Shown here in pieces: positions 1,047 to 20,000 of a stretch of DNA of 20,000 nt (within the stretch, counting starts at the first letter, position 1; each line of letters opens with the position of its first letter). The notes below the pieces were generated by a model that made no database searches, was not told the DNA's origin, and saw only the letters and a program-made list of their open reading frames with translations. Origin of the DNA: Cirrosporium novae-zelandiae (taxonomy: Eukaryota); assembly GCA_026023565.1 (NCBI GenBank), contig JAPETS010000040.1, forward strand, positions 238,968 to 258,967, read 5' to 3'. The position numbers and the translations under genes were made by a program.

Positions 1047-3197
1047 TTATTGAGCTCCGAAATAGTGATTAGTCACATCTTCGGACCTTCGTTCTTCCAG
1101 GGTTCCTGGCATACCTCGGAGGACTTGTATGGTGGTTAGCAAAAATACATGAAACAGTTTATAAAATGTAAGTTACCCACCTGAGTGCTCTCAATAACTC
1201 GACCAGGTGCAATATAAGATCCCGTTTTGATCGTTACTCCAGGCATTATTGTCACATTCGCGCAAATAACGCAGCTTTGTTCAATGATAACTGGAGCTGC
1301 TTGAGAAGGGCCATTGATTCCAAATCTCGCCGATTGGTTGGGCGACATTGTGTTTGCTAGTATAGTTACACCCGAACCGATTGTAGTACGGTCACCGATT
1401 TTAATTGGCGCGGCATCATGGAAACGGCAGCCTGTTTCAATAACAACATCGGTCCCGATTTGGAGGTTGTAACCGTAATCACAGTAAAAGGGGCCTTCGA
1501 CGACAGAATTATCACCCAGTGTGCCTCTCGGCAGGTCGCTGGCAGTTGGGTGTAGAATTTCTAAGAAAAGTCGGCGACAATCTGCCTTATTATTGTATGG
1601 TGGTTCGTTGTTGAAGCGCCATAATGCTTTCTTGCAGCGCTCTCGAAGCGCAAACAGCTCTTGGGAGTATGCGTGATACTGCATCCCTTTCTCCATATTT
1701 TGCCTTTCAGTTAGACTGGGTTCGGCCACTTGTGCAAGAGCCATTTTTGCCGTGGCCTGTGAACTTGAAGCACTGAGGGAAGTATTTAGTGTAGGTGGCT
1801 GCTGGAAGCGAGATGCACTTGGATAAATATCCCTTCCATCGGACTGTGGAGTGTTTGCTATTTCATGAAAGGAAGGAATGCTGGTGCGAGCTTCCGGACG
1901 CCCATATCCCGGGAGTGGGGGTGGATACTCATTCGGGCGCTGGACATTTTCTGGAGGATACGAATTGGAAGGAGCAGAGAAAGAGGGCCTTGTTGAATAT
2001 GACGTTCTTGAACTCGGAGACGTTTGATAGAATATCCCATCTTGATCGTCATTAACCATGACTGGTCTTCCTCTACTACCATCAGAGCCTCGCGCATCAG
2101 TTGGATGAGCGAAATTGGCTCCATCTGGAGTATATGTTGGTAAAGAATCTTGATAGACTGTCTTCGATGGCTGTAGAGGCATTGGTCCTCGTTGAGTGGG
2201 GGTTTTCTGGGGCATCTTCGGCTGATACCCTTCACATTTGAAATGACCACGGACACAATTTTGACCTAAAATTAATAAGCGAAAAAGTTCACCAACACAA
2301 ATTTGATCAAAATTTATACTTACAAACCGGCTTAGCTTCATCACATTTCTTCTTTCTTCGCCGGCATGTCAAACATCCAGTTTTTGTCCGATTAGCGAAT
2401 GCCCGTTTCCTTGGTTTGTCTGAATGGCCTTCAGGGTGATGATCGGGTCCATAAGCTCCATAAGATGACATGCGAGAATGGTCATCGTCGGTCTGAGGAC
2501 TTGGTTCGTTGAAACGAGCATGGTTATTTGGATAGCTTTGATTGTTAGCTTGCTGTAAAACTTCAGCAAGTCTAGCATCTGAAGGATCACTGCGGTGTTG
2601 AATGGATTGTGATGGCATGGAAGCTTGTGGTGTTGAATATGGACCCCAGGCTGGATGTGATGGCGTATGAATCGATTGGTCAGCGTCGCTAGCTGGTCTC
2701 TCGGACTCATTCTGTGTCCTCAGAAAAGCATAACTTGCCTCACGTTCTGGACTATGGGAACTGGGAGAATTGCTGTGGGTGCTAGATTCCGGCGACTTTT
2801 CTCCATCTGGGGACTTCCTGAATTCTCGAAATGGCTTTGCACCGGAGTTCGAGGCGTCGGTGTCTGAAAGTTTTCGTTTATGAGGAGATACAACGACCGA
2901 AACAGCTTGTGATGACGATGTGACGTTAGAAGTGCCATTCGAATGAGCTGTATTTTCTTTTGGCAGAGAATTTTGTCTGTCGTCATGGTGGTTTGGAGCA
3001 GACTCGTCTGTTGGTTGCTCCTCTCTTCGAGGAGGGCTTCCCGGTAAGCCATTGAGAGGACTCCTTGGTAAACCATTGGGAGGACTCAGAGCATTCCGGT
3101 CATTCACAGCCGTGAAGCCAGAATCATGGCTGTCTCTATCTCTATCCTTTCCTAGAGGGCTATTGCTGGTGGCAGGCTTGGTAACGACTGCAGCCAT
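1047..3197 (-). CDS. Zn(II)2Cys6 transcription factor fused to a C-terminal maltose/galactoside O-acetyltransferase-like (Mac + hexapeptide LbH) domain, ~680 aa
   Basis: Exon 1 is 3197-2324. A 58-nt intron at 2323-2266 (GTAAGT...TTTAG) joins the two ORFs and restores a complete cluster, CLTCRRRKKKCDEAKPVCQNCVRGHFKC, preceded by basic KPRKRAFANRTKTG. Exon 2 encodes Mac-like TERQNMEKGMQY...LRERCKKALWRFN, VEGPFYCDYGYNLQIG and hexapeptide repeats (IKIGDRTTIGSGVTI, VTIMPGVTIKTGSYI). The last exon is uncertain: branch GCTAAC at 1140-1135, donor at 1176 or 1180, AAG acceptor at 1124, stop at 1047 (or 1073; the unspliced stop is at 1136). Confidence 0.88.
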
Positions 3198-4008
3198 ACT
3201 TATTGGGCTTATAGATTAACCAGTGACTCCAGGGTAAAAATGGCCAATTGAATTCTTCTATTTGATATTCTCCTTACGACGGACTTGAAGCGGGATGGTT
3301 TTCGAGTACCAAATTCGGTTGTTTCTGACCTTGATAACAACGAAAAGAGCAACTCACAAGCATCAACCCGAGGATAAGTTGAACTATGGTGATTCGTTTA
3401 CTTTATCAAGGTAGATACTTGCGAGTTATTTTCGAATTTTCATAAAATGGATGATGCTGTGATGAAATGGCGCCTGCAGCGGTTGCGAGTTGGCTGGGAG
3501 AATAGCCGGCAACAAGGTCGTAGAAAAACAACGTTAAGATCTGCAGACGCAAAAAGGTGACCAAGGAGCCGAGAGAATGCTTCAAATAATAGTCGAAGTA
3601 CTTCTCTCTTGTGCTTGAGGCTGAAAAAGAATCAATGGCAATAGTGGGAGCCGCGCGATTAGAGTCGGCTGCGGTTGATAGTACCCGAGTCGCCTTGATA
3701 AGCGGCGCTTTATTGAGGAGGGGGGGAAACTCCACTGACTGTGTCACAAACACTGTGAAGTGATTAGAGGACAAGCCTAGAATAAAGGTGATTAGAGCGC
3801 GGTTGGATTTGCAAAGATTTGAACGAGTTTGGGGGTTGTTTGGAAAGCAAAGAAGGGGAGAGAGGGAGCGACAGGCGCGCGAGAAGGCCTCGCTTATGAC
3901 TTGGATGGGGGTGTGCGGGCTGCGGTTCCGTAGATCCCTGTTCTATCTTGTCAGTGGGGCAAGCGCTGGTAGCGGTTAGTGGCTTAAAAGGACTTTTTGG
4001 GTGATACG

Positions 4009-4028
4009 CACACACAGACACACACACT
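4009..4028. repeat. Short imperfect (CA)n microsatellite
   Basis: cacacacagacacacacact. Confidence 0.7.
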
Positions 4029-5856
4029 CAACTGTAAGTACCTTAAAAGTACATTCTGTAACCTTCAGTAACCAGCTGTAACCCTGTATTTTTGGAAAGC
4101 ATAACTAACAATACGGGGTAATACAAACGATACAAACAATACAAACAGAACCAAATAAATAATATTTAACCAGCCCGCCACATCCTTGCTTCTGATTAGA
4201 CCATCTATCTGTTCTCACAACTCCCGGCCAAATCTACAGTATCAACGTCTTTTTTTTTAAAAATTCTTTCCACATGTACCTGGGTAATTACAATCATGGC
4301 CAATCTGCAGCCTAAAAAAGTTAGGAAAGTTTGGAAAGTCAGGAAACGCCAATAAAGTTTACTGAACTCAAAGCAACTTTTTAGGCTCAAAGTCACCCCC
4401 GCCATGCTTTTCTTTCAAGGGCTCTGTCTCTCCCTCCCTAAGCTCCAAACGCTTGAGGGCTTCAGCTTAAACAACACCTTGTAAGTTCCCAAAAGTAAAG
4501 AAAAAAAAAAGAATAATTAAAAAAGAAAAAGGAAAAAATAACTGAGCCTTCCCTGTTCCAGTAAGTAATAATTCTACTACTTCGGGATTCCTAGGTGCTA
4601 CTACTTCGTATAATAATTAGCCTTGGACGTTGCAACAAATCACTATTCATTAAATTGAGGTTTGTTTCACCGAGACCTTCGGTAGGCACTTATGGCCCTG
4701 TAAGCGCCGTCGCCAAATCTTTCGGAATTCATGCATTGACAGACTCTCGCGGCACCGCCTAAAGGAATCCATCATCCATCATCCACCAACGGTTAGCCAT
4801 CAACCGCAGTTAACTGCCATTCAAAACATGGTTATGGCCTGTACTTAGTCACACGCGCCTGGTGATTGCAAGTTAGTATCAACTGTGGTTGCGGCTGAGG
4901 AGTCAGCCTTAGTGATTGGAACTAGCAATCAATTGGTTCATGAATTTGTTTGCTCAGCGTCAGTTAGCAATTGGTGCGACTTGGTTAGTTACTTCAAGTA
5001 TCGCATTATGACACCTTCTTTGGTTCCGGCGGTAGTTGACCACAGCGTCATTCCAGACCTCCGCCGACAATCAACCATAGCCCCTCTGGTTGGTCGGATT
5101 CATTGCGAGAATGGGAAGGTGAAAAGCGGTGCAGGATAAAACACGAATGAGGTGCGTCATTCAGTTATAGACTATAGCAGTTTTCCAATATACCTTAATC
5201 ACTCAGACAGAGACACACAGCCTTCCGGGGATCAGCTTAACTTGATATTGACTCGGTTTCTCGGATATTCAGCCCACCATTTTTATTATTGAACCGGATT
5301 GGAGGTTGTGGGAAGGGTTAGCCGCGACTTCAGCTATGACCGACCACGGACTGGTTGTACATAGGTAACAATATAATAATTATTACGGTGAATATCACGT
5401 ATATCACCCACCATTCCTTTAATCCCTGCTTATCAAGGGAAGATGGATGATGCTTTCATCAGCCTATACCTTCTAGAGCTTGAGAGGGGAGGGGGGAAGT
5501 CTCGGCTTACTTGCAGTGGAACGAGTGGAAAAAAAGACCTTAGAGAGTTTATGGTTTGGTAGTGGGCTTTGTAGCTTGTTAGCTCCAATTTCGGATTGGG
5601 TCCAAGGGCTAAGGTGATGCAGGTGGAAAGCGCTTGGCGGCAAAAGGTTAGCGTTTATCAGGATGCGCCAGAAGTGAATTGTTGTCTTTACCAATAGCGA
5701 GGCGTAAGTGGCTCTCGATAAGTGCGGAAAGGCGGCTTGAAGGGCTTGAATCGGCTCGAGTGTTCCCTTCCCCCCCCCCACCACCCCTTGTCCCTTGTTC
5801 CTCGGAACACCCAAACGCTGGGAACCCGGGAGCCTGAGTGCCTGGCGAAAGAGCAC

Positions 5857-5878
5857 GAGAGAGAGAGAGAGAGGGAGA
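5857..5878. repeat. (GA)n microsatellite
   Basis: gagagagagagagagagggaga. Confidence 0.8.
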
Positions 5879-6653
5879 AATCAAGACTTTCACAAAGTTT
5901 AACTATTGTCCAAGTAACTACCTACCATACAGTAGTTTCCATTTCTTTCATCCCCGTCCCTGGAATGCTTTCTACATTTTAGGCAACTCTGCCGTGTAAG
6001 CTTAGGGTCATGCAGTCTTTAGACCGATTGCGATTTTCTTGTGTATTAAGGAGAGGTGATGGCCGCGCTGTATCACACCTCTAATTCAACAGTCGAGGCT
6101 ATTCGCTATTGTCTATCGCGTCTGTAAGACAAAGCCAGGCAAAAAACGGCCTGACTTTCCATCAACCGCCGAGGTAAAATACGGCAATTCAAATTCCACC
6201 TAAGTTACCAACAATCATTCATTTCTCCCCGTGGTAGTATCTAACTAATGATGTGATCTCGATTTTTTTTTGTCTTTGTCCTCCGGTGTCGAAATAGGAA
6301 TTCTTAACCCATTCTTGACTACCGTAACTGGAAATTTTGTGTTCCTCCAGAAAGCGGCCCCCAATACAATAGTCCTTTACTATACAGTCAGTGTATTTTA
6401 GTACAGGGCTGGAGATCTAAGAAGGATGTAGCGACTATCGCCTAAGCGAGCCGCTTTCGCCAATCAACTTGGCACTAACCCATAGTTGGTACTAAGGTGG
6501 GACCCCCCTCTCCCTCTTACCCATTTCTTACCCATTTTTTACCCGTCTTGACAAGCAAAACGAAAAGAAACGAAAAACGAAAAAAGAAAATAAAAAATAA
6601 AAAATAGTCTACGGAGGTAATCATGATTGGCATAACCCCATATATGACGCAAA

Positions 6654-6675
6654 ACAACAACAGCAACAACAACAA
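6654..6675. repeat. Short imperfect (CAA)n repeat
   Basis: acaacaacagcaacaacaacaa. Confidence 0.7.
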
Positions 6676-8283
6676 ATACTAACTCCAATAATCATAATAT
6701 TAATAAAATAAGATGCACAAATTTACCAAAGGGGTTTATTTATATTACAGCGTACCTACCTATCATGGATAAAGGTGTGGTTGGTGGTAAATGAGACTGT
6801 TGTTCGCTTGCCATGTTGCCGTTCACATGACCTTATGCAACGGCCGAGATGTGACCCACACAGCAGCAAGATTCTAAGAGGAGGCCCACGGAGCCTAAAA
6901 GGAAAAACGAAGGCAATCATTGACTTGGATATGGGGAGATGGGATGATTTTTCTTACCTTTTCCCACTGTGTGCATGCCAAGCCTCAACAACAAGAACAA
7001 CCTTGATCCATGATCCGAGTACCACTCCGCATCAGAGCCTCAAAGTGGCCAATAATCCGCCATCAACTTCCAAGGATCATCTCATCTCAAAGCCATCAAA
7101 GCCCAAATCCAATTTATGACAGTTCTTCGGGAATGTGAATATCAAACTTGGGTCATAGCCGTTCTTTGTCGGGATGAGGGAGACAAGGGGAAAAGGCTGG
7201 GGAACTCCCCTCTAAGATTGTCCCTTAGCTGGCCAACTAAGAGCTTGTCTGTTGTCCGTGTGCGTGAAACATGACTTTTGATGACAAGTCCAGTGCCCTG
7301 TGTGCAACGCTGTAGCGTCAAAACCACCTATCAAGTCCTTCTAGGCTTACCACTTTCCCCAGGGGAAGAGGGAAGGGCATGTCAATGACTCGTGGACCGA
7401 CATCATAGGGGCTTACTTACTCTAGCCGGCGCCTTATGGTTATCCTACCGCATCACAACTCCCTGCACAACCAAAAAGTTAAGTATCTTCCAGGAAGCTA
7501 CTCATTTACATTACATCCATAGTCTATCTCACAACAAATCTCAACCACCATCTTATTTTCCCCTCACTATTCTCAAGGATATTCATTTTCACCTCCTTTA
7601 CTTTCCGTGCTGTGGATTTGTCCTCGCTTCTGTATTTCTATATAAGACATATACAAGGCATGCTCAGTACTCGATATGAAGACATGGTTGAGGCACGGCA
7701 TCCGATAACGGAACAGTCACTTTAACTTTATCTATGTGCATGTGGCAATATACCATGTCAACGATGGATCTGCAAGTAACTTAAAGAGCGCACTTGTCTA
7801 TTGGGGAGTCTAGCTTACACTTGATGTATTGATCACCTACTCGGGAGAAAACAATTTCAACTTTACAGGAACCCCCTCCCCCACCACCATCATCTCTACC
7901 CAAAGGGTGTTCTGAAAGCAATATGCTCATTTCTAAAAAAAATCAAGGCAAAGGGGATAGAGAACAGCTTAGAATTTTTGATCCAAGTCCACCGGTAGGA
8001 CCCATGCAAATTATTCTTTTCAATCGGAGTTCGGCTAGTACTCTACACTGTCTTTCTGGCAGGTGTAATAAATGGAGGGGCCTCAACTGAAAATATTGAG
8101 GTGCTAATACTAGCTTGAATGTACATTAGATACTATCATCGTAAAGCCGTGGGAACAGAAAGTTAATGTTCTTGTGATTTGGCATGAGCGATTTAACTTT
8201 ATACCTCTGACATGGGATAGGTTACTTCGTGCTCATTATTTTGCCTCCCAATTACTGGAATGGGTATCAATATCATAAACAAA

Positions 8284-9975
8284 TCATAAACCAGACCCCT
8301 TGTTCATGCCCATGATTCGCCCGTGCCTGACCGCCCCAATACTTACTCCGCACTCGCCGGTCATCCAACCGGGCATCTTCTCACCATCGACGGCACCGCT
8401 TTCTACCAGTTGGCGGATGCCGGCGAAGATGTGAGAGCCATGGAATGTAAGGCGGACATCGGGCTTCCATGGGTTGTCAGCCGCTCCATGCTCCTCCAAC
8501 TCGGGTTGATCATCATCTACCGGCAGGCCATCGAGGAATGATCGTCTCCCTCGTTTGGATGACCTGCCTTCTTCCCCGCCTGCTCTTAAAGCTGCATTTG
8601 CCGATCCATCGTCGCCATTATCTACCTCCGCCACACTTCTACCAAATGGAAAGGGCTCTTCGAGTCTGATTTCAAGTCTGTCTAGGCCCTTCCCATCGCC
8701 AACCAACCCCGAGTTTCCAAAGCGGTTATTAGCAATACATTTTATGCGCTTAATGTTCGCTTCGTCTATAGCATTCCGTATAATAGGTTGCTCCAGCCCT
8801 GGCCGTCCCCTCTTCCTATTTCTTACTTGCCCTTGCTGGTTTCCCTCTGATATGTTCTCTTTATCTTCCCCAATCTCACTAGAGCCATAATCGATAGATT
8901 TTCGTTTAATTAAAACATGATCTAATGGCGAACAATCAGCTGTTCCGTCGGCAAATCTGTTCCAGCCCCCGGCAGCAGCATGGGCTCTGCCCGGTCCTCT
9001 CAGCTCGAGTAATGTCTCTAGGGACTTAGAGCTCAAAGATGTGGTTTGCAGCTCATAATGCCCCTCGGGATGTGAAAAAGCCTTTGGCAAAGCATTGAGA
9101 ACAACTTTCTTCAGGTTCTGACCTTCGCCGCTAGCAGCCCGACCTTGTGTAGATGACGATGAAATATAAATGTGAGGCGTGCCATCAGGGAAAGCGGCCC
9201 ATAAAGTTTTCGAAGACTCTAGTGATGACGCTTGCCTGGAGTTCCGAGTGCTGGATAGCAAATTTTGAGTATTGTATGGCGAGTCCGTAAAGTAGATGCG
9301 CAATAGTGTCAATGGCAGCTCTTTGGCACGATGCAAATAGCAATGTGCTTTCGCTAGTGGCGCTATTTCCCGTTGCAAGTTTTGTATGAATGTGGGTCCA
9401 TGGAATCGTGGCAACGTCTCGAGTTCTTCAAAGATTCTTTCACCTTTCTCCACTCCATCTGTAGACCCACCGTCAATATCATCACCTTCAGATATTACAG
9501 CAGTAATCCGCACCACTTTCACGGCCGTCCATCGCTGAACTGAAGGATGCGCCAACAAATGCCGCGACTCTGCGTCAGCGATCTGATATAGCGAAATCCC
9601 ATTTTTCCAGTCGCACTCTAGCATTCGATCTAATACCTCGCGCTTCCCACCTTTCTTCCCTTCAAAATCGCGATAGATGTCGCGTAACTCTTCTATGCTC
9701 GCCGCGGGGGTGAATCCGCCTGTATCGTATCCATCTAGTGCAACTTCGTCATAATCTTCATCTTCGCCTTGGCCAGATTCGTGCAAAAAAGGATTGCATG
9801 TAAATTGAACCTCTGGGTTTTCATGGAGCCAGGAAAGGGCAAGAGAGATCAAAGCGGGTCGGGAAAGGCGTGAGAGTGTCCGAAACACTGTGGGTGAGGC
9901 TGAGGGGAAGAGAAGGATTGATGGAAGAGCGGCGGTGGTGGGGATTGTAGGTCGTTTTCGATGGTTAGGAGGCAT
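8284..9975 (-). CDS. CHL4: Kinetochore protein CHL4 / CENP-N (Mis15) family, 563 aa, intronless
   Basis: Long ORF whose first in-frame ATG is at 9975 (MPPNHRKRPTIP). The listed upstream TTG start gives non-conserved-looking sequence. Family-type motifs: LSRLSRPALISLALSW, DWKNGISLYQIAD, AFPDGTPHIY, LSSKSLETLLELRG and C-terminal LTFHGSHIFAGIRQLVESGAVDGEKMPGWMTGE. Confidence 0.9.
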   Translation of the reverse strand: MPPNHRKRPTIPTTAALPSILLFPSASPTVFRTLSRLSRPALISLALSWLHENPEVQFTCNPFLHESGQGEDEDYDEVALDGYDTGGFTPAASIEELRDIYRDFEGKKGGKREVLDRMLECDWKNGISLYQIADAESRHLLAHPSVQRWTAVKVVRITAVISEGDDIDGGSTDGVEKGERIFEELETLPRFHGPTFIQNLQREIAPLAKAHCYLHRAKELPLTLLRIYFTDSPYNTQNLLSSTRNSRQASSLESSKTLWAAFPDGTPHIYISSSSTQGRAASGEGQNLKKVVLNALPKAFSHPEGHYELQTTSLSSKSLETLLELRGPGRAHAAAGGWNRFADGTADCSPLDHVLIKRKSIDYGSSEIGEDKENISEGNQQGQVRNRKRGRPGLEQPIIRNAIDEANIKRIKCIANNRFGNSGLVGDGKGLDRLEIRLEEPFPFGRSVAEVDNGDDGSANAALRAGGEEGRSSKRGRRSFLDGLPVDDDQPELEEHGAADNPWKPDVRLTFHGSHIFAGIRQLVESGAVDGEKMPGWMTGECGVSIGAVRHGRIMGMNKGSGL

Positions 9976-10418
9976 TGCCTTGTTATCAAGTAGTAGTAAT
10001 GCTGTAGGGATGGTAGGTGGGTTGAAATAAATAATTATACAACTACATTTTCTGTATGCGACACGATAAATCTCTAAATTATCGATGCTGGTCTTCTGCT
10101 GGTGACGAGGATCGGTAGGGTAAATAAAGGGCGAGGCGCAACGGAGGCGACAAGGATGGAGCTCTGGTTGACCGCTCAAGGGCTCTAGAGGCCGAAGGAG
10201 CCTTCACATGCTTGAATCTTGTTTGTAAGGTCTGTCACTGAGGTCACTTTGGTAGGTGGCTCAACATCATTGGAATGCATTCAATGCTAATCTTCTAGCA
10301 CGCCCAAATTTGCTTCATATCTAATGTTCTTTTTCTTCTCTTCATGGCGTCGGATGTGCGACTTACTATTCAACTCAATAATTGTTTAATTCATAGCTAA
10401 TTGCTTCAGCGCTTCAAT
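9976..10418. promoter_or_regulatory. Divergent (head-to-head) intergenic promoter region shared by CHL4 and the lipase
   Basis: Only 443 bp separate the two divergent start codons; a pyrimidine-rich tract lies at ~10326-10343. Confidence 0.6.
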
Positions 10419-12311
10419 ATGGCGAGCGGGAGACTTCCTTTCGTAGGTAGACTTTATCTGTAAGTACCTCCCTACCATGGATCACAACTTTCCTACTGGA
10501 ATTGTTTCGCAAATTCTTTATCTTTGTGCTTCTTCTTGGTGGCTGGGGTGGAAGGGATGCCATTCTATTATGATGAAACATTCATATGGGGCCTATTTGT
10601 GCTAATTATCATCCTTTCTTACTACACAGACGCGAATATCTTGCTCTCTTTGGCTCCTTTATTCTCATCTTTCTCGAAAGCACTATCAGAATAGCTACTC
10701 TCCTTCTTCGTACGTACAATAGTCCCAAGAATCTTTGGGCTTTTGTTTCTAATGGGTCATTGGCAGCTCAACCCATAATACAATTCTGCTACGATCGTTC
10801 CAAAACCGTATTCAACGCCTTCTCCTCTCCTCAAAGCCGTCAATCTCGCTCTAAAAGACGGACGATTACCCATTCCATAGCATGCGCAGCCGACTTCGTG
10901 GATCTATGTGCAATCTATGGCTATTATGCAGAGGAGCATGTGGTCCAGACAAATGACGGATACCTCCTTGGCTTACATAGACTTGCATGCCGCAAAGGTG
11001 AAGAAGGGCGCCTCGTAAATGCTGGACCAGGTAGTCTTAAGAAGAAAGTTATATATATGCATCATGGGCTTCTGATGAATAGCGAAGTATGGGTTTGCCT
11101 GACTGAAAAGGATCGCTGCCTTCCCTTTGCCCTTGTTGATGCTGGCTATGATGTTTGGTTAGGCAATAATAGTTTCGTGCCCCTTCCCAATAGCTACTGG
11201 ATTTTCTCTAATTCTTACAGGAGGAAATAAGTATTCGAAAAAATCAACGCTTCATTCCCCGACATCGACCGCTTTCTGGGATTTTTCCATTGACCAGTTT
11301 GCATTCTACGATATCCCAGATAGCATCAACTATATCCTATCAACCACAGGACAACCCTCGCTATCGTATATCGGCTTCTCGCAAGGAACTGCCCAAGCTC
11401 TTGCTGCATTGTCAACACACCCTTCCCTCAACAAAAAGGTGAATGTATTTATTGGACTTGCTCCTGCTATGTCCCCCGCCGGGCTTTCTAATGCTCTTGT
11501 GGATGCTATGATCAAAGCCTCTCCTTCTATAATTTTCTTGGCCTTCGGTAGACGTGGCATCCTCAGCTCAGCCGTGATGTGGCAATCGATACTCTATCCG
11601 CCCATCTTTATCCGGCTCATTGACGCTTCCATGTCCTTCTTATTCAATTGGGAAGTCAAGAACATTGCGACTCACCAGAAGCTTGCTGCTTACCCACATC
11701 TCTACTCTTTTACCAGCACCAAGAGCGTTGTTCATTGGTTCCAGATTATTCGGACAAAGTCTTTTCAGATGTACGACGATGATGTCCACGCTCCGTTCAG
11801 CATTGCTGCCCACGACCGTTATACCAAAGTTGCCAAATTCCCAACGCGCAATATAAAAACTCCTATTGTTTTGGTATACGGTGGCTCTGACAGTCTTGTT
11901 GATATCGACATCATGCTCAAGGAGCTACCTAATCATACTACTGCCAGGGAAGTGCCGCATTTTGAGCATCTCGACTTTCTATGGGCACAAGATGTTGATA
12001 CGTTGGTATTCCCTTACGTTTTCGATGCCCTTGCACAATACGCCAGCGATAGCTTAGATCTAGAAGGCGAAGATGGTACATATTCCCCAGCAAAGTTCGA
12101 TGGTACTACAGGTTATGAACCAATCTCGCCACTGGCGATTCGCAAAACAGGGGAAACGATCAGACGGGGTAACAGAAGTAGGAACAAGAGAACGAATAGC
12201 ATGGGGAGTGCGTTGAGCCTTGAGAGCACTGGGACCTCAGCAAGGATAGCGAATGGAGGCATCTCTATTGGACCGGCCACTGCGACAGTAGGTACAGTGA
12301 CGAAAAAATGA
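10419..12311 (+). CDS. Alpha/beta-hydrolase lipase / sterol esterase (Tgl1/Yeh-like, abhydro_lipase domain) with N-terminal membrane anchor, 538 aa
   Basis: Exons 10419-10459, 10630-10709, 10767-11171 and 11221-12311. The spliced product starts MASGRLPFVGRLYLREYLALFGSFILIFLE (TM). Motifs: EEHVVQTNDGYLLGLHRL, HHGLLMNSEVW, GYDVWLGNNRGNKYS (restored by splicing), nucleophile GFSQG, GGSDSLVD and catalytic His in FEHLDFLW. Confidence 0.92.
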
Positions 12312-13325
12312 TAGAGGATTTAGGTGTTTGCGTGCGCTGCTCCTTGATACATAGCTTACTGGGTAGGATATATTTTTTAAGGTGGATATCTGATAACACT
12401 AAATTGACTGTCCAAGGGTTCTCCTCTCCAGCGATGTATTTATTCTTTCTAGCATATTTCTGAATGTTGATTAGATCATTGGTGATAAAATCAATGGAAC
12501 CGAATAGGCTTCTCCATTTATACTGCAGCCTGAGGCATATATATATATAACCAGTGGGGGCGGAAAAGAGTCAATCCATCGCTTGTCAAAATACGTCGCT
12601 ACTTCGAGAAGGTTGGAATCTCTCGCTTGCTTGGTAATTTATTTTCTTCTGGGTATCATTGGCCACGTTTCATGAGATATTGTTTTATATAACGAAGTTT
12701 CAAAATGCAAAATAATGTTAATGAAAAATTCCATGGCTTGTTATGATCCTTCGCCACAGAAATCTTAAATGACAACTTCGTGCAACGGAGAGGACTGCCA
12801 GGGGCCATGACTAGTGTTTCATTAAGCTTCAACACGGCCTTATATTGTTTCAATAATATTGAAAATATATTGTTTTTCAATTCTTTCCACCGCTTCTGTC
12901 GCACTTGTCAATGCCAAATCATTTAGTTATCCAATTGAAATGTTGATTATTCTACAGGGCCCGTAATGGACCCCTTGGCCCCATCATTCTATCGTTCCGT
13001 ACCAGATAGCCGTCGTTCAGTAGTGGGTGGTCTAGTGGTCGTCATCAGGTTTCTAAACATTTCGGATGCCTTGATAAAACTCGAGCCATCTCCTCGAGTA
13101 TTTTTCCCCCTCATCGCTCCTCTCAATACTTTCGTGTGGGTGCTGTCTTTCTTTCCACTCAATTGCTGCTAGCCAGCCTTTACTTTCTTTTCTCTTTGAT
13201 CAGAGGTCCATTCTTTTCGACCCAGCTCCAATTGATTTGGACTGTAGCCTATCATTCTATCATTTAGCACTCCATTCACAAGTATACTACTATACACTCT
13301 CCTCTCTTTCAAACCTCCACTCAAA

Positions 13326-16300
13326 ATGCGAAGCGCAATCATTAACAGCGTTGTTGCTGTTGGCTGTATGGTCGGAGCTGCTGTAGCTGATGATGTTTCC
13401 GCTGCCTGGACTGATAGCAATACTGGCATTGAGTTCCAGCAATTTACTGATGCAGATACCGGATTTAGTGCTGGTATCGCACTTCCCGAAAGCCCCAAGT
13501 CAGACTTTATTGGAAACATTGTAGGCATATCCTTTGCAGTCATACAAAAGCAATCAACTGATATCTCTAGGTTCTTCCATTAAACAATTCAGAAGGATGG
13601 GGAGGCCTTAGTTTGACCGCAGAGATGGTGGGGTCCTTGCTGATTACAGCATGGCCTAACGGAGACAGTGTCATGGGCTCCATTCGTGAAACATCGTATG
13701 CATATCTCTATGATGAATCAAATTGAAAAAAAAGAAAAAAAAACGCTGACCAGTTTAGATCTTATGCGACACCTGCCGTTTATAGCGGTGACGCAACATT
13801 GGAACCGATCACGAATGGAACCTTCATCAACTCTACTCACATGTCTTATACTTTTCTTTGCTCTGGTTGTATTGTTGACGATCTCACCTTCACAGCTTCT
13901 GATACAGGCGCTGTCATGGGATGGGCCATGGCTGATACCAGCCCAACGACCCCAAGCAGTGCTTCAACTGCTTTTACCTACCACAGCAAAGGTTATGGTG
14001 ATTTCGAGATGTATTTATCTAAAGCTTACTCTGCCTCGTACTCCACTTGGGCATCGTATGCTAGCACATCCACATCTAGTGGAAACGCTACATCAACCGG
14101 AAACTCCACTGCATCTACTTCAAGCTCGACAGCCGCTCCATACTCAAATACTACATCCACATCTACGACATCCAATATTACTTATGATTATATCATTGCA
14201 GGCGCTGGGGCAGCGGGCATTATCGTCGCCGAGAGATTGGCGGAGACCAACAAGAGTGTTCTTTTATTGGAAAGAGGAGGTGTCTCAACCAAATCTAGCG
14301 GTAATAACGATACTCTTTCATGGAACGATACAATCACTGCTTATGATGTCCCTGCTCTGGCAAGCACGCTCTCTGAGATCGTCGATACCTACTGCACAGA
14401 TACCGCTGATATGGCCGGATGTCTTCTCGGAGGTGGAACCGAAGTTAATGCCTTGATGTTCGTTAAGCCCCAAGAAAAGGACTTCGATGATAAGTGGCCT
14501 ACGGGGTGGAAATGGAGCGATGTTGAGGAATATGCAAGCAAGCTCTATGAACGCAACCCTGGTACAATTCTACCCTCGGCGGATGGTAAATATTATGACC
14601 AGCCTGTCTACAATGTTCTGTCGTCATTTTTTAGCGGACTCGGTTGGAGCTCGGTGAATGCGATTGAAGAGCCAAACAAAAAAGAGAAAGTTTATAGTCA
14701 CCGTAAGTCTACACATTCTCTTTTGAAGCCGATTCCTGATTAACATTTCGTAGCCCCTTGGTCTATTCAGGACAGCGAGCGTGCTGGACCCGTTAGAACA
14801 TATCTTCCTTTGGCCCAAGGATTGGACAACTTCACTTTGAAGCTCAACACCAAGGTTCTCCGTGTGGTTCGTGACGGTAGTGCAATCACAGGTATCGAAA
14901 TAGAAAACTCAGATGGAAGCACAGAGATTATTAACATTAACACCGGTGGCAAAGTCATCCTGGCTGCTGGTACAATGTCAACCCCTCGCATACTGTTCAA
15001 TAGTGGTATTGGACCCAAGGCTCAGATCCAGACTGTTCAAAGTGGATCAACTGGCATCACGCTGCCAGATGAGGCAGATTGGATTGAGCTTCCTGTTGGC
15101 AAGAATTTGAAAGACCACCCGATCTTCACCGTTGAATTCAACACCAATAATAACTTCTCAGTATTCAACTTTGATACCGTGGAGACTGGCCCCAGTCTTA
15201 CCAACGAAGATCTCTACGCTCAAGGCTCTGGCCCAATTGCGCAAGGAGGTCAGCGCTTGAACTTCTGGACTACTGTCAATAGTACCGATGGCATCACTCG
15301 CTATATTCAAGGCACCACTAGTGCTGCTTCGGCCGGTGTAATAAAGATGAAGATCTATTTAACTCACGGACTGACATCAAGTGGCGTTCTCGGTATTACA
15401 TCTGATGGATATACCACATTTACAACTGATCCCTGGATGACAACTGCAGCTGATCAAACAGCCATTAACAACTTCATGCAATATATGATTGACGCCACCT
15501 CATCGTCTAACTCTACTCTCAGTATCGTTGGCAAGACCTCCAATATGACCGGGTCAGATCTCGCTACGGACTACGTAACTGGCGATCATTTTGTTGGCAC
15601 AGCCATCATGGGTACTAGCAACAATAGTGCTGTCGTTGACACCAACACCAAGGTTTTCGGAACCGACAACCTCTTCGTTGTTGATGGATCCATCCACCCC
15701 GATCTTCCTACCGGTAATACTCAAGCTATCATCATGGTCGTTGCTGAAGCTGCCGCTGCTAAGATTGCTGCACTGGACACATCCTCATCAACTTCGACTT
15801 CAAGTGTTGCTGCTTCTAGTGCGTCCGTTGGATCTCATGCTGTTACTTCAGTAGCTGCCTCTTCAGTGGCTGCCTCGGTGGTTACCACTATTGAGGGTTC
15901 CACCACGACTATTGTCAGTTATGTGACTGCTACCGCAGAGAGTTCAGACAGTGGTTCTGCTAGCTCTGGCCAATCGTCATCCGGCCAGTCCTCGGGCTCA
16001 TCCAGCTCCGGTCAATCCAGTTCAGGTTCATCCAATTCAGGAACATCCTCTTCTGATTCTTCGGACTCTGGATCTTCGTCGAGCTCTTCTAGTTCCAGCG
16101 CAAATGACTCGAACTCATCTGGTTCTGGCTCATCGAGCTCTAGTTCTACATCTGAATCTGGCTCATCTAGTTCGACATCTAGTTCCTCGGGCTCGTCCTC
16201 GAGCGATGCGGATGCTGAAGTGGTTGCAGCAATGGAAGAAATTATCCAAAAAATCATGGAAGAGTTGAAGGAGGTTATTGCTGAGGATTCAACCAACTCA

Positions 16301-16393
16301 ACTCTCAAGGCTAGAGGCTATGATCATACTCACGCTCACGCCAAGAGGGCACTTCTGAGTCACTTTGACTCTCTTCGCTCAAGTAAGCATTGA
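13326..16393 (+). CDS. cdh: Secreted cellobiose dehydrogenase-like flavocytochrome (AA8 cytochrome + AA3_1 GMC oxidoreductase) with long C-terminal extension, 967 aa
   Basis: Exons 13326-13520, 13571-13695, 13759-14702 and 14754-16393, all GT-AG with the frame restored. Signal peptide MRSAIINSVVAVGCMVGAAVA. Cytochrome motifs GWGGLSL, heme-ligand Met (AEMVGSLL, 13625), CSGC and His (FTYHSKGYG, 13982), then an S/T linker. FAD-binding YDYIIAGAGAAG, MAGCLLGGGTEVNA, GKVILAAG and VGKNLKDH. Catalytic His (GDHFVGT, 15587) and Asn (PTGN). Confidence 0.92.
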
Positions 16394-17596: not shown

Positions 17597-18714
17597 ATGA
17601 ACAATCGAGGGCGTTTTGGAGGAGGCTCCGGCTTCAGCCTGAGTAATATATTTGGCGATCCATTTGCGTTGGCGACAGTTTCAATTGCGGTGGTATGTCA
17701 GATATTGCGCAACTAAACAAAAAGTCATCACTGATTTTATCTAGCTCGCTGAACTTATTGCTCTTGTGGCTTCTGTCATCTCCGATATTCAATCTTCTTA
17801 TCCAAACTTCGCTTGGTGGACAATAGCGTACATGTTCTGTTGTGTCATCGGCGTTATCATCGTCATCGCTTCGGATTCCGCCCAAACTTATTCCGTAGCT
17901 GTATGTCACATACAATTGCTGAGTACCCTTTCATCAGACTAACGCCTTTCTAGATTGTCGGTTACCTTGCCGCAGGCCTCGTCTTCACCTCATCATCAAT
18001 CAATTCTCTTGTGTATGATCCATCGGGTTCAAAAGAAGCAGCCGCAGCTGGGTTCATCCTGCTCTCAATGGTCTCGGTATGGACGTCAGAATTCTAACGA
18101 CGATTGTGTTTCACTTAGCTGACTCTGGACTATATATAGATTGTTTGGATCTTCTACTTCGGCTCTACACCACAAGCTAGCCATCGCGGCTATATCGATT
18201 CTTTTGCACTTCATAAAGAACAGAGGTCATCTATGCGTAATAGCCAACCCATGTCTAACGGTCGCCCTGAGACTATATCTACCACCCAACCCCCACAGTT
18301 GTATACCTCGTCGCATCTAAATGGATTGGAGACATCCTCCCCTGTTTCAGGATATCCGGGAGGACCTGCAGGCTCAGAGAACCGCAACTCTCAGGCCCGA
18401 TTTGGTGCGCCGCCAGCCAGTTCACCCACGCCCGCAACCAACCCTGCCGAGGTTTCGCAACCTACAGAGTACCCATACCGTGCGAAAGCCATCTACTCTT
18501 ACGAAGCGAATCCTGATGATGCAAACGAGATCAGTTTTCAGAAGCATGAGATACTTGAAGTATCTGACGTGTCGGGACGGTCAGTATCCCATTCCTTCTA
18601 CACAGTGCTGTTTTTTTTTTTCGTTGGCTAATTTGTCTATGTAGTTGGTGGCAAGCTCGCAAAGATAATGGAGATATAGGGATCGCCCCTAGCAATTATC
18701 TTATCCTTTTATAG
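17597..18714 (+). CDS. SHO1: High-osmolarity signalling membrane sensor Sho1 (4 TM + C-terminal SH3), 294 aa
   Basis: Exons 17597-17692, 17745-17900, 17954-18076, 18140-18579 and 18645-18714. Motifs: [53 protein letters not shown] and SH3 [59 protein letters not shown]. Confidence 0.96.
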
Positions 18715-19873
18715 GCCTTCTCCTGATATCTGGGACACCCTGTACAATGATCACGCGGTTACGGTTTCTATTTCTCACTATTGTTCAAGTTTGGGTACTC
18801 GATACGATGAGACCTTTGCTGTCAACACAAAACGGCTTACGAGGGTTTCTGTATGTCGACGTCTAGAACTTCAGAATCTAAATTTTTTTTTTCACCTTGT
18901 GACTGGGAACTGGGCCTTTGAGTTTTTTTCTTAACTTTGTTTGATGGGTTATTTTTGGTAGCACAACGGAATTATACTAAGGCGAGGTTCAGGGGTGTTG
19001 TTTTCATTGATACCACCAATCTTCAGTCGGTCATCGCCCGCAAGCAGCAAAACAAAAATGCAATGAGTCGTAAATAATTCCTCTGGTTCTTTTTAGCATG
19101 TCTGGTGTTTCCTTAGCCCTGGGGTTTATGTGATGTACGCGATTGATACATTGTTACTTTTGATGTACAGAGTAAAGACCTTTTCGCCATGAGAGCTAAC
19201 GGCACCGTTTCTTCTTCCGGCAAGAGTTGCGAGAGATATGTTCTGCTTAACGGCTGCACCAATCAATTATTCCATTTCTATCAAGACTTTTTATCAATGA
19301 AAAATCCAGGCTCGTATATCTCCCTTTCCCAGACTCGGGAACCGGCCAATTAAGTCATGATAAGACGCGTGGCCGGTTCGGATCAGTTTGTCATTCACAT
19401 CCGACCAAATCCCGTTCTTGAATTTTCTTTGTAGAATTCGGCGACAAGGTGATTCCGTGTTTACTTTATCTTACGTCTGCTTAGAAAGTCCCCCCATTGA
19501 CCATGTAAGCCTCTAAGGGCTGTCTTTAACACTTTTTTGCTTTGCTCTTTACTGCTAAAATAGCTGGCAATGATGGTATATATATAAAATCGTGACATGT
19601 GTTTTTGACCAGGGCAACTTTTTTACTTTAACATTTAGTTATCACCAAGTTCCTGATAATCCATTGATAAAAGAGTGGCTAGTTTATTCCAATTAGGGAT
19701 ATCGTAAAATAAACCATTATTTGCTCAATTCACACCTTATGTTTTCTTTCAAAAATTTACATAACCCCGTCCATCCATCTCATCCCTTCATTTTACCCGT
19801 AAGTGTATATATCCCCCAAATCACATACAAAAAAAAAACATGTAACCATCCTCCTTCATCCCTAACAACACAG

Positions 19874-20000
<127 letters not shown>

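Follow-up and report, generated by a model that had tools for sequence, protein, structure and literature searches.

A Zn2Cys6 transcription factor of the FF-7 family in Cirrosporium novae-zelandiae carries a maltose O-acetyltransferase-type domain without catalytic residues: a probable pseudoenzyme

The ATG at position 3197 of the window (the whole 20,000-nucleotide stretch of Cirrosporium novae-zelandiae DNA analyzed here) opens a minus-strand gene whose product joins a Zn2Cys6 cluster, through a Pro/Ser-rich linker, to a domain of the maltose/galactoside O-acetyltransferase (Maa/LacA) type. This domain has kept the fold of the enzymes and lost their catalytic set, so that the case for a pseudoenzyme, as far as sequence can make it, is well supported; it probably serves as a structural module for self-association and/or partner binding and probably neither catalyzes a reaction nor acts as an acyl-CoA receptor. 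As an ortholog in the known and characterized FF-7/Bcin04g03490 family of developmental regulators, the gene is ordinary; what appears to be new is that FF-7 and Bcin04g03490 themselves have lost catalytic residues, together with a graded series of losses running from Orbilia to the Eurotiomycetes. Neither a pseudoenzyme reading nor a graded catalytic loss in this family was found in the literature searched (subscription papers and supplements fell outside its scope), and the accessible text of PMC4378982, PMC8495738 and PMC6260400 holds no keyword match for the former. FF-7-type factors are major developmental regulators, with thousands of binding sites in Neurospora and null mutants that lack fruiting bodies. 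The absence of both the catalytic His and Asn from FF-7 and Bcin04g03490 calls the published acetylation mechanism into question.

Gene Model and Membership of the FF-7 Family

The coordinates of the gene, of its diagnostic residues and of its neighbors are collected in Table 1. Excision of intron 1 produces a Zn cluster like that of P0002, a 669-residue database protein that is identical to the window protein over the domain, contains the same fusion and is labeled maltose acetyltransferase at its source, a label flagged here as a common mis-annotation of such factors. The Maa/LacA-type domain shares one reading frame with the latter half of the Zn cluster, and the three motifs on which the initial annotation was built (ETGCRFHD, ILANTMSP and QSCVICANV) are all encoded in frame by the minus strand between 1181 and 1735. 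At the 3′ end of the gene, nine splice variants of intron 2 fall within 1.5 bits of each other when scored against ortholog profiles; none of them restores the C-terminal G-N-P-A-R segment, one yielding G-x-P without the Arg.

Table 1. Positions of the factor gene, its diagnostic residues and the neighboring genes in the window
Feature	Position	Strand	Basis or remark
Exon 1	2324..3197	-	ATG, low-complexity N-terminal region, first part of Zn2Cys6 cluster; ORF list, splice-site listing, Pfam Zn_clus; agrees with start of P0002
Intron 1	2266..2323	-	GTAAGT...TAG, 58 nt; interrupts fourth Cys codon of the Zn cluster
Zn2Cys6 binuclear cluster	2234..2375	-	Residues 275-302, intron 1 inside; FF-7-type, N-R-T-K-T-G-C lead-in
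Exon 2	2265 to ~1181	-	Pfam Mac_assoc, Mac, Hexapep
Pro/Ser-rich linker (Pfam Mac_assoc)	1712..2233	-	~170 residues, hydrophobic residues scarce
Maa/LacA-type domain	1181..1711	-	Helical cap and left-handed β-helix
Glu568 (position of LacA Asn85)	1436..1438	-	Alignment
His574 of RFHD (position of LacA Val91)	1418..1420	-	Alignment; not conserved
Met598 (position of catalytic LacA His115)	1346..1348	-	Alignment
Val624 (position of LacA Trp139)	1268..1270	-	Alignment
Ala644-Pro645 (for LacA Gly159-Ala160, G-A-G turn)	1205..1210	-	Alignment; common to Eurotiomycetes
Intron 2	1124..1180	-	Donor 1180 (GTGGGT) or 1176 (GTAACT); branch site GCTAAC 1135-1140; acceptor most likely 1124
Short last exon	1047..1123	-	Stop 1073-1075 (P0002 model) or 1047-1049 (alternative donor)
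CENP-N/CHL4 kinetochore protein	8284-10203	-
α/β-hydrolase, lipase-like	10577-12311	+
Cellobiose dehydrogenase, long Ser-rich tail	13248-16393	+
SH3-domain protein	18140-18700	+

The protein displays the organization of its family, a central FF-7-type Zn2Cys6 cluster followed by a Mac_assoc linker and a C-terminal Mac plus hexapeptide domain. The Zn cluster scores 98 bits, against 34 bits or less for the next-best Zn clusters of the same genome, and the linker (composition: P 0.16, S 0.14, L 0.04; median length across 233 records among the matches listed: 187 residues) shows no sign, judged by composition alone, of a coiled-coil dimerization helix behind the cluster. A domain search of the genome returned two matches, the window gene and a stand-alone Maa, and the fusion is thus single-copy.

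Known members of the family include Neurospora FF-7, Botrytis Bcin04g03490, Fusarium FGSG_10069 and Aspergillus AN1402. The initial annotation, which knew of no functional characterization of the fusion, was mistaken on this point: work on FF-7 (PMC4378982) and Bcin04g03490 (PMC8079791) and the localization of AN1402 (PMC12316961) are in print, and knockouts, ChIP-seq and loss-of-function alleles within the domain, which the authors term a putative acetyltransferase, exist for the family. Neurospora crassa FF-7 (NCU04001; P0381) shares the architecture of the window protein and a near-identical Zn cluster (BLASTP E 3e-61, residues 237-649). Described as a putative O-acetyltransferase, it binds DNA at 2756 ChIP sites through a single short motif of the AAGCG type, has SUB1 as a weak interaction partner, shows fertility and light-response phenotypes, and supports transactivation but not nucleosome eviction (PMC4378982); it also appears in studies of clock period and ultradian rhythms (PMC8495738, PMC6260400). 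The GAL4, Mac_assoc and left-handed β-helix (LbH) domains of Botrytis cinerea Bcin04g03490 (P0365) match those of the window protein (E 5e-71). Its deletion, like its natural alleles, abolishes sporulation, sclerotia and pathogenicity, its LbH domain is the site of the null alleles Y633D and G722R, and its authors speculate on acetylation as the mechanism (PMC8079791). The closest of the four proteins compared is Aspergillus nidulans AN1402 (P0180; E 3e-76), with a near-identical Zn cluster and a nuclear location (PMC12316961).

The window holds 12 FF-7-type motifs against 7.1 expected, a count equaled or exceeded in 12 of 200 shuffles and thus not significant. Six of the 12 lie in the roughly 5 kb upstream of the factor (3198-8283), where no clear gene is seen. 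The factor may correspond to Aspergillus McrA. That name does not occur in the accessible part of the Botrytis paper (PMC8079791). In Neurospora crassa, FF-7 reportedly has its own gene among its targets (PMC6260400).

Fold of the Acetyltransferase-Type Domain

Against solved maltose/galactoside O-acetyltransferases (Maa/GAT), the domain returns phmmer E-values of 1e-9 to 5e-14. Its predicted model, with a mean pLDDT of 94.3, shows the helical cap and left-handed β-helix of Maa/LacA and derives from a 131-row alignment that itself contains Maa-like rows, so that it is not independent of that family. Foldseek places the model at a TM-score of ~0.8 to Maa/LacA entries, and structural superposition on the same enzymes gives Z-scores of 24-25 with an rmsd of 1.4-1.8 Å, the next families following at Z 15. 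Residues 7-185 of the model superpose on residues 2-168 of the LacA chain; the superposition output reports ranges without residue pairs, and the offset that it gives at the C-terminus equals that of the sequence alignment. The proposal that the fold outlived the active site is borne out.

Loss of the Catalytic and CoA-Side Residues

In alignment with the reference LacA and Maa sequences, taken from the annotated E. coli loci, the absence of the catalytic His and of the conserved Trp, originally read by eye, is confirmed: Met598 and Val624 occupy the positions of LacA His115 and Trp139. A His and a Trp contributed by adjacent subunits are common to LbH O-acetyltransferases (PMC3046976), and in LacA the H115A mutation lowers conversion by 90%, N85A causes a loss of more than 20% and W139A is one of the acetyl-CoA-proximal mutants with a loss of 15-64% (PMC12775004). 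The Asn named by the initial annotation, that of the N-x-x-I-L-D motif, is indeed lost; it corresponds, however, to LacA residue 87, and the catalytic Asn85, lying two residues earlier, is lost too, with Glu568 in its place. Its further concern that the His of RFHD might occupy the catalytic position can be set aside. His574 aligns with LacA Val91, a residue counted among the ligand-proximal ones (PMC12775004), and as a relocated catalytic base, though structurally conceivable, it was rejected as unconserved: the position lies 24 residues from that of His115 and carries a His in 1/242 fused records among the matches listed.

The CoA side of the site has gone as well, including Trp139, the Gly-Ala-Gly turn and the C-terminal G-N-P-A-R segment. 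Because E. coli Maa itself carries Ala-Ser at positions 159-160, the telling change in the turn of the window protein is the Pro. By hand count, 43/61 positions conserved across the classes of Leotiomyceta are kept in the window protein, distributed as 34/44 in the cap and first coils, the W-R-F-N-N helix included, and 9/17 in the CoA half.

A built-in control is provided by the stand-alone Maa of the same genome (L002; G000:C67:56314-56652), in which Asn, His and Trp are all intact. This enzyme and E. coli Maa/LacA have the fold in common with the window domain at 27-31% identity; they differ from the window protein in retaining Asn, His, Trp and G-x-P-x-R and in lacking a DNA-binding domain. 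The L002 gene has one intron, and its product has two extra residues inserted behind the D-Y-G turn.

The characterized orthologs occupy intermediate positions. The Asn85/His115/Trp139 positions are occupied by Gly613/Cys643/Trp669 in N. crassa FF-7 and by Gly646/Leu676/Trp702 in B. cinerea Bcin04g03490. FF-7 has thus lost the Asn and His like the window protein, while keeping Trp139 and the G-A-G turn, neither of which the latter possesses; Bcin04g03490, again unlike the window protein, keeps the full CoA-side set with G-N-P-A-R. AN1402 shares with the window protein A-P-G in place of G-A-G and the loss of Trp139, and differs from it in having Ser, Ala and Tyr at the three positions, with a His at +1 of position 115. 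Of the two Botrytis null alleles, Tyr633 corresponds to LacA Tyr72, a Tyr in 240/242 records among the matches listed and in the window protein, and G722R maps to LacA Gly159, in the G-A-G turn.

Graded Loss among Fused Proteins

The survey pool was assembled from a length-restricted homolog search (11/11 listed hits), the best 150 of 2377, best 120 of 430 and best 120 of 987 hits of further searches and one cluster look-up. It comprises 359 domain records; the counts cover the 242 with a Zn-cluster lead-in (window included) and exclude the other 117, which are fragments or stand-alone proteins. The sampling is skewed to the Eurotiales. Class labels follow organism names and the taxonomy that we take to apply to them.

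Among the matches listed, 16/242 fused records carry a His at position 115, namely 8/9 Orbiliomycetes, 5/7 Pezizomycetes and three without class label that group with the Pezizomycetes. It is found in none of the 171 named Leotiomyceta records listed, FF-7 and Bcin04g03490 among these, and Asn85 in two of them. The missing His is thus no quirk of this genome, and the ortholog survey agrees with the pseudoenzyme reading of the initial annotation. Asn, His and Trp occur together only in Orbiliomycetes (7/9 among the matches listed), Pezizomycetes having mostly His and Trp. In a first survey, 13/114 records without a Zn motif had His115; most of these appear to be stand-alone proteins, and one sits in a fused Pezizomycete-like cluster. 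Two records, P0081 and P0084, are fragments with no Zn cluster in the record and fused-type-like domains, and since they carry the His, its loss may not be absolute.

The CoA-side set, defined as Trp139, Ala160-Gly161, Gly176 and Pro178, was retained for longer. Among the matches listed it is intact in 11/12 Lichinomycetes-type, 21/25 Leotiomycetes, 29/38 Sordariomycetes and 20/20 Lecanoromycetes records; it is intact in 0/68 Eurotiomycetes (0/11 Onygenales and 0/57 Eurotiales), in 0/7 Dothideomycetes, where Trp is lost and G-A-G kept in five, and not in the window protein. The acceptor-side positions (LacA 17, 93 and 113) differ among classes. In the Eurotiales (e.g., P0180), 55/57 of the records listed have a His one residue past position 115, where the Onygenales have Ile. 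The Lecanoromycetes (e.g., P0300) have a Tyr at the His position in 20/20 of the records listed, with the CoA-side set intact.

In a 75-row tree of the domain, the fused domains group together to the exclusion of six stand-alone enzymes (97/82); within this group, 50 rows make up a clade without the His (99/96), to which the Orbiliomycetes and Pezizomycetes do not belong. The window protein, whose very long branch (2.0-2.6) is the longest among fused rows, is sister to the Eurotiomycetes (99/95); when the Eurotiomycetes are omitted, it remains within the clade that lacks the His (99/94) and shifts weakly beside the Dothideomycetes. The simplest reading of this topology would be that an intact enzyme was fused and then lost its residues stepwise, although an active copy may instead have replaced the domain in Orbiliomycetes. 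The fusions of the latter (P0142, P0276-P0282) retain the Maa catalytic and CoA-side set in full and hardly vary from one species to the next. In P0142 of Orbilia brochopaga, the Zn cluster and the fusion are as in the window protein, from which it differs by its full catalytic and CoA-side set (Asn580, His610 and Trp636). Such proteins are candidates for a true acetyltransferase-transcription-factor fusion, and the family offers a natural series for testing: intact (Orbilia), His-less with the CoA side (Neurospora) and lacking both (Aspergillus and the window protein).

A Structural Module and Its Alternatives

The reading that we consider probable for the window domain is that of a structural module. 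The factor would bind DNA via its Zn cluster, as shown for N. crassa FF-7, and its C-terminal domain would derive from a maltose O-acetyltransferase that was catalytically intact when fused, a state that appears to persist in Orbiliomycetes. Asn85 and next His115 would have been lost ahead of the Leotiomyceta radiation, and the CoA-side residues additionally in the lineage of the window protein and Eurotiomycetes. The folded domain, presumably inactive and needed for function, would bring about self-association of the factor, probably into a trimer by analogy with its enzyme relatives, and/or offer a partner-binding surface on its conserved helical cap. Because no coiled coil is apparent behind the Zn cluster and the linker is long and flexible, several clusters could recognize short single sites without a fixed spacing. 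That the domain matters is indicated by the two null missense alleles in the LbH domain of the Botrytis ortholog (PMC8079791). Two observations speak against a purely structural role, namely His574 at a ligand-proximal LacA position and the His at +1 in Eurotiales. In addition, G722R in the G-A-G turn suggests that the CoA-side surface may matter in Botrytis.

The initial annotation favored an acyl-CoA or sugar sensor, in which the dead site between subunits binds acetyl-CoA or CoA and tunes the factor. The idea fits the orthologs that keep the CoA-side residues better than it fits the window protein: judged from the residues retained, it is plausible for those of the Neurospora/Botrytis type, where the set outlasts the His in most Lichinomycetes-type, Leotiomycetes and Sordariomycetes and in all Lecanoromycetes records listed, and where G722R strikes a turn likened to that of VioB, an LbH enzyme whose Gly-X-Gly turn touches CoA at its pantothenate and adenine (PMC9271549). 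The equivalence of the two turns is drawn from the motif and its spacing to the G-x-P turn, not from alignment, and a Gly-to-Arg change may just unfold the helix or prevent assembly. For the window domain, a sensor is unlikely: Trp139 is Val, the mid-turn Pro has no backbone NH to offer, G-N-P-A-R is encoded by no splice variant, and the acceptor-side positions vary among classes.

It is quite unlikely that the domain is a relic drifting under relaxed selection in this lineage and of no further importance. The long, shifting branch of the window protein, the longest among fused rows, also fits relaxed selection, and the C-terminus is divergent. However, the frame is open, the class-conserved positions that are kept lie mostly in the cap and first coils, the model is confidently Maa-like, and none of the 242 records lacks the domain, albeit these were selected for having it. 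Very unlikely, finally, is a His-independent acetyltransferase acting on lysine or another amine of chromatin or partners at the binding sites, as outlined by the Botrytis authors: LbH N-acetyltransferases can dispense with the His, ApmA H135A still N-acetylating (PMC7885111), many orthologs keep the donor site and the domain alleles are null, but Asn85 is gone too, the donor-side set is missing from the window protein and 68/68 Eurotiomycetes records listed, no reported activity of these proteins was found in the accessible texts, and nucleosome eviction did not need FF-7 (PMC4378982), so that such activity is possible for orthologs with the donor site and hardly for the window protein. The accessible part of PMC8040287 contains no usable passage on His-free catalysis.

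Beyond the structural module preferred for the window protein, a tentative and rather doubtful extension would see in the FF-7 family a metabolic enzyme caught in the course of becoming a regulatory module. An active fusion (Orbiliomycetes) would have given rise to a dead, acetyl-CoA-binding sensor (Neurospora, Botrytis and lichen fungi), tying fruiting-body development and light responses to the level of acetyl-CoA, and then to a ligand-free scaffold (Eurotiomycetes and the window fungus), the β-helix throughout assembling the Zn2Cys6 factor into a trimer that reads DNA with three heads.

Genomic Neighborhood

No link between the four neighboring genes of the window (Table 1) and the factor was seen. 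Two contigs of the assembly (C35 and C47 of G000) give identical matches at identical coordinates (L008-L011), which suggests that one contig is duplicated in the assembly. The window closes with a long (CAA)n microsatellite (19872-20000) that runs up to the end of the contig.
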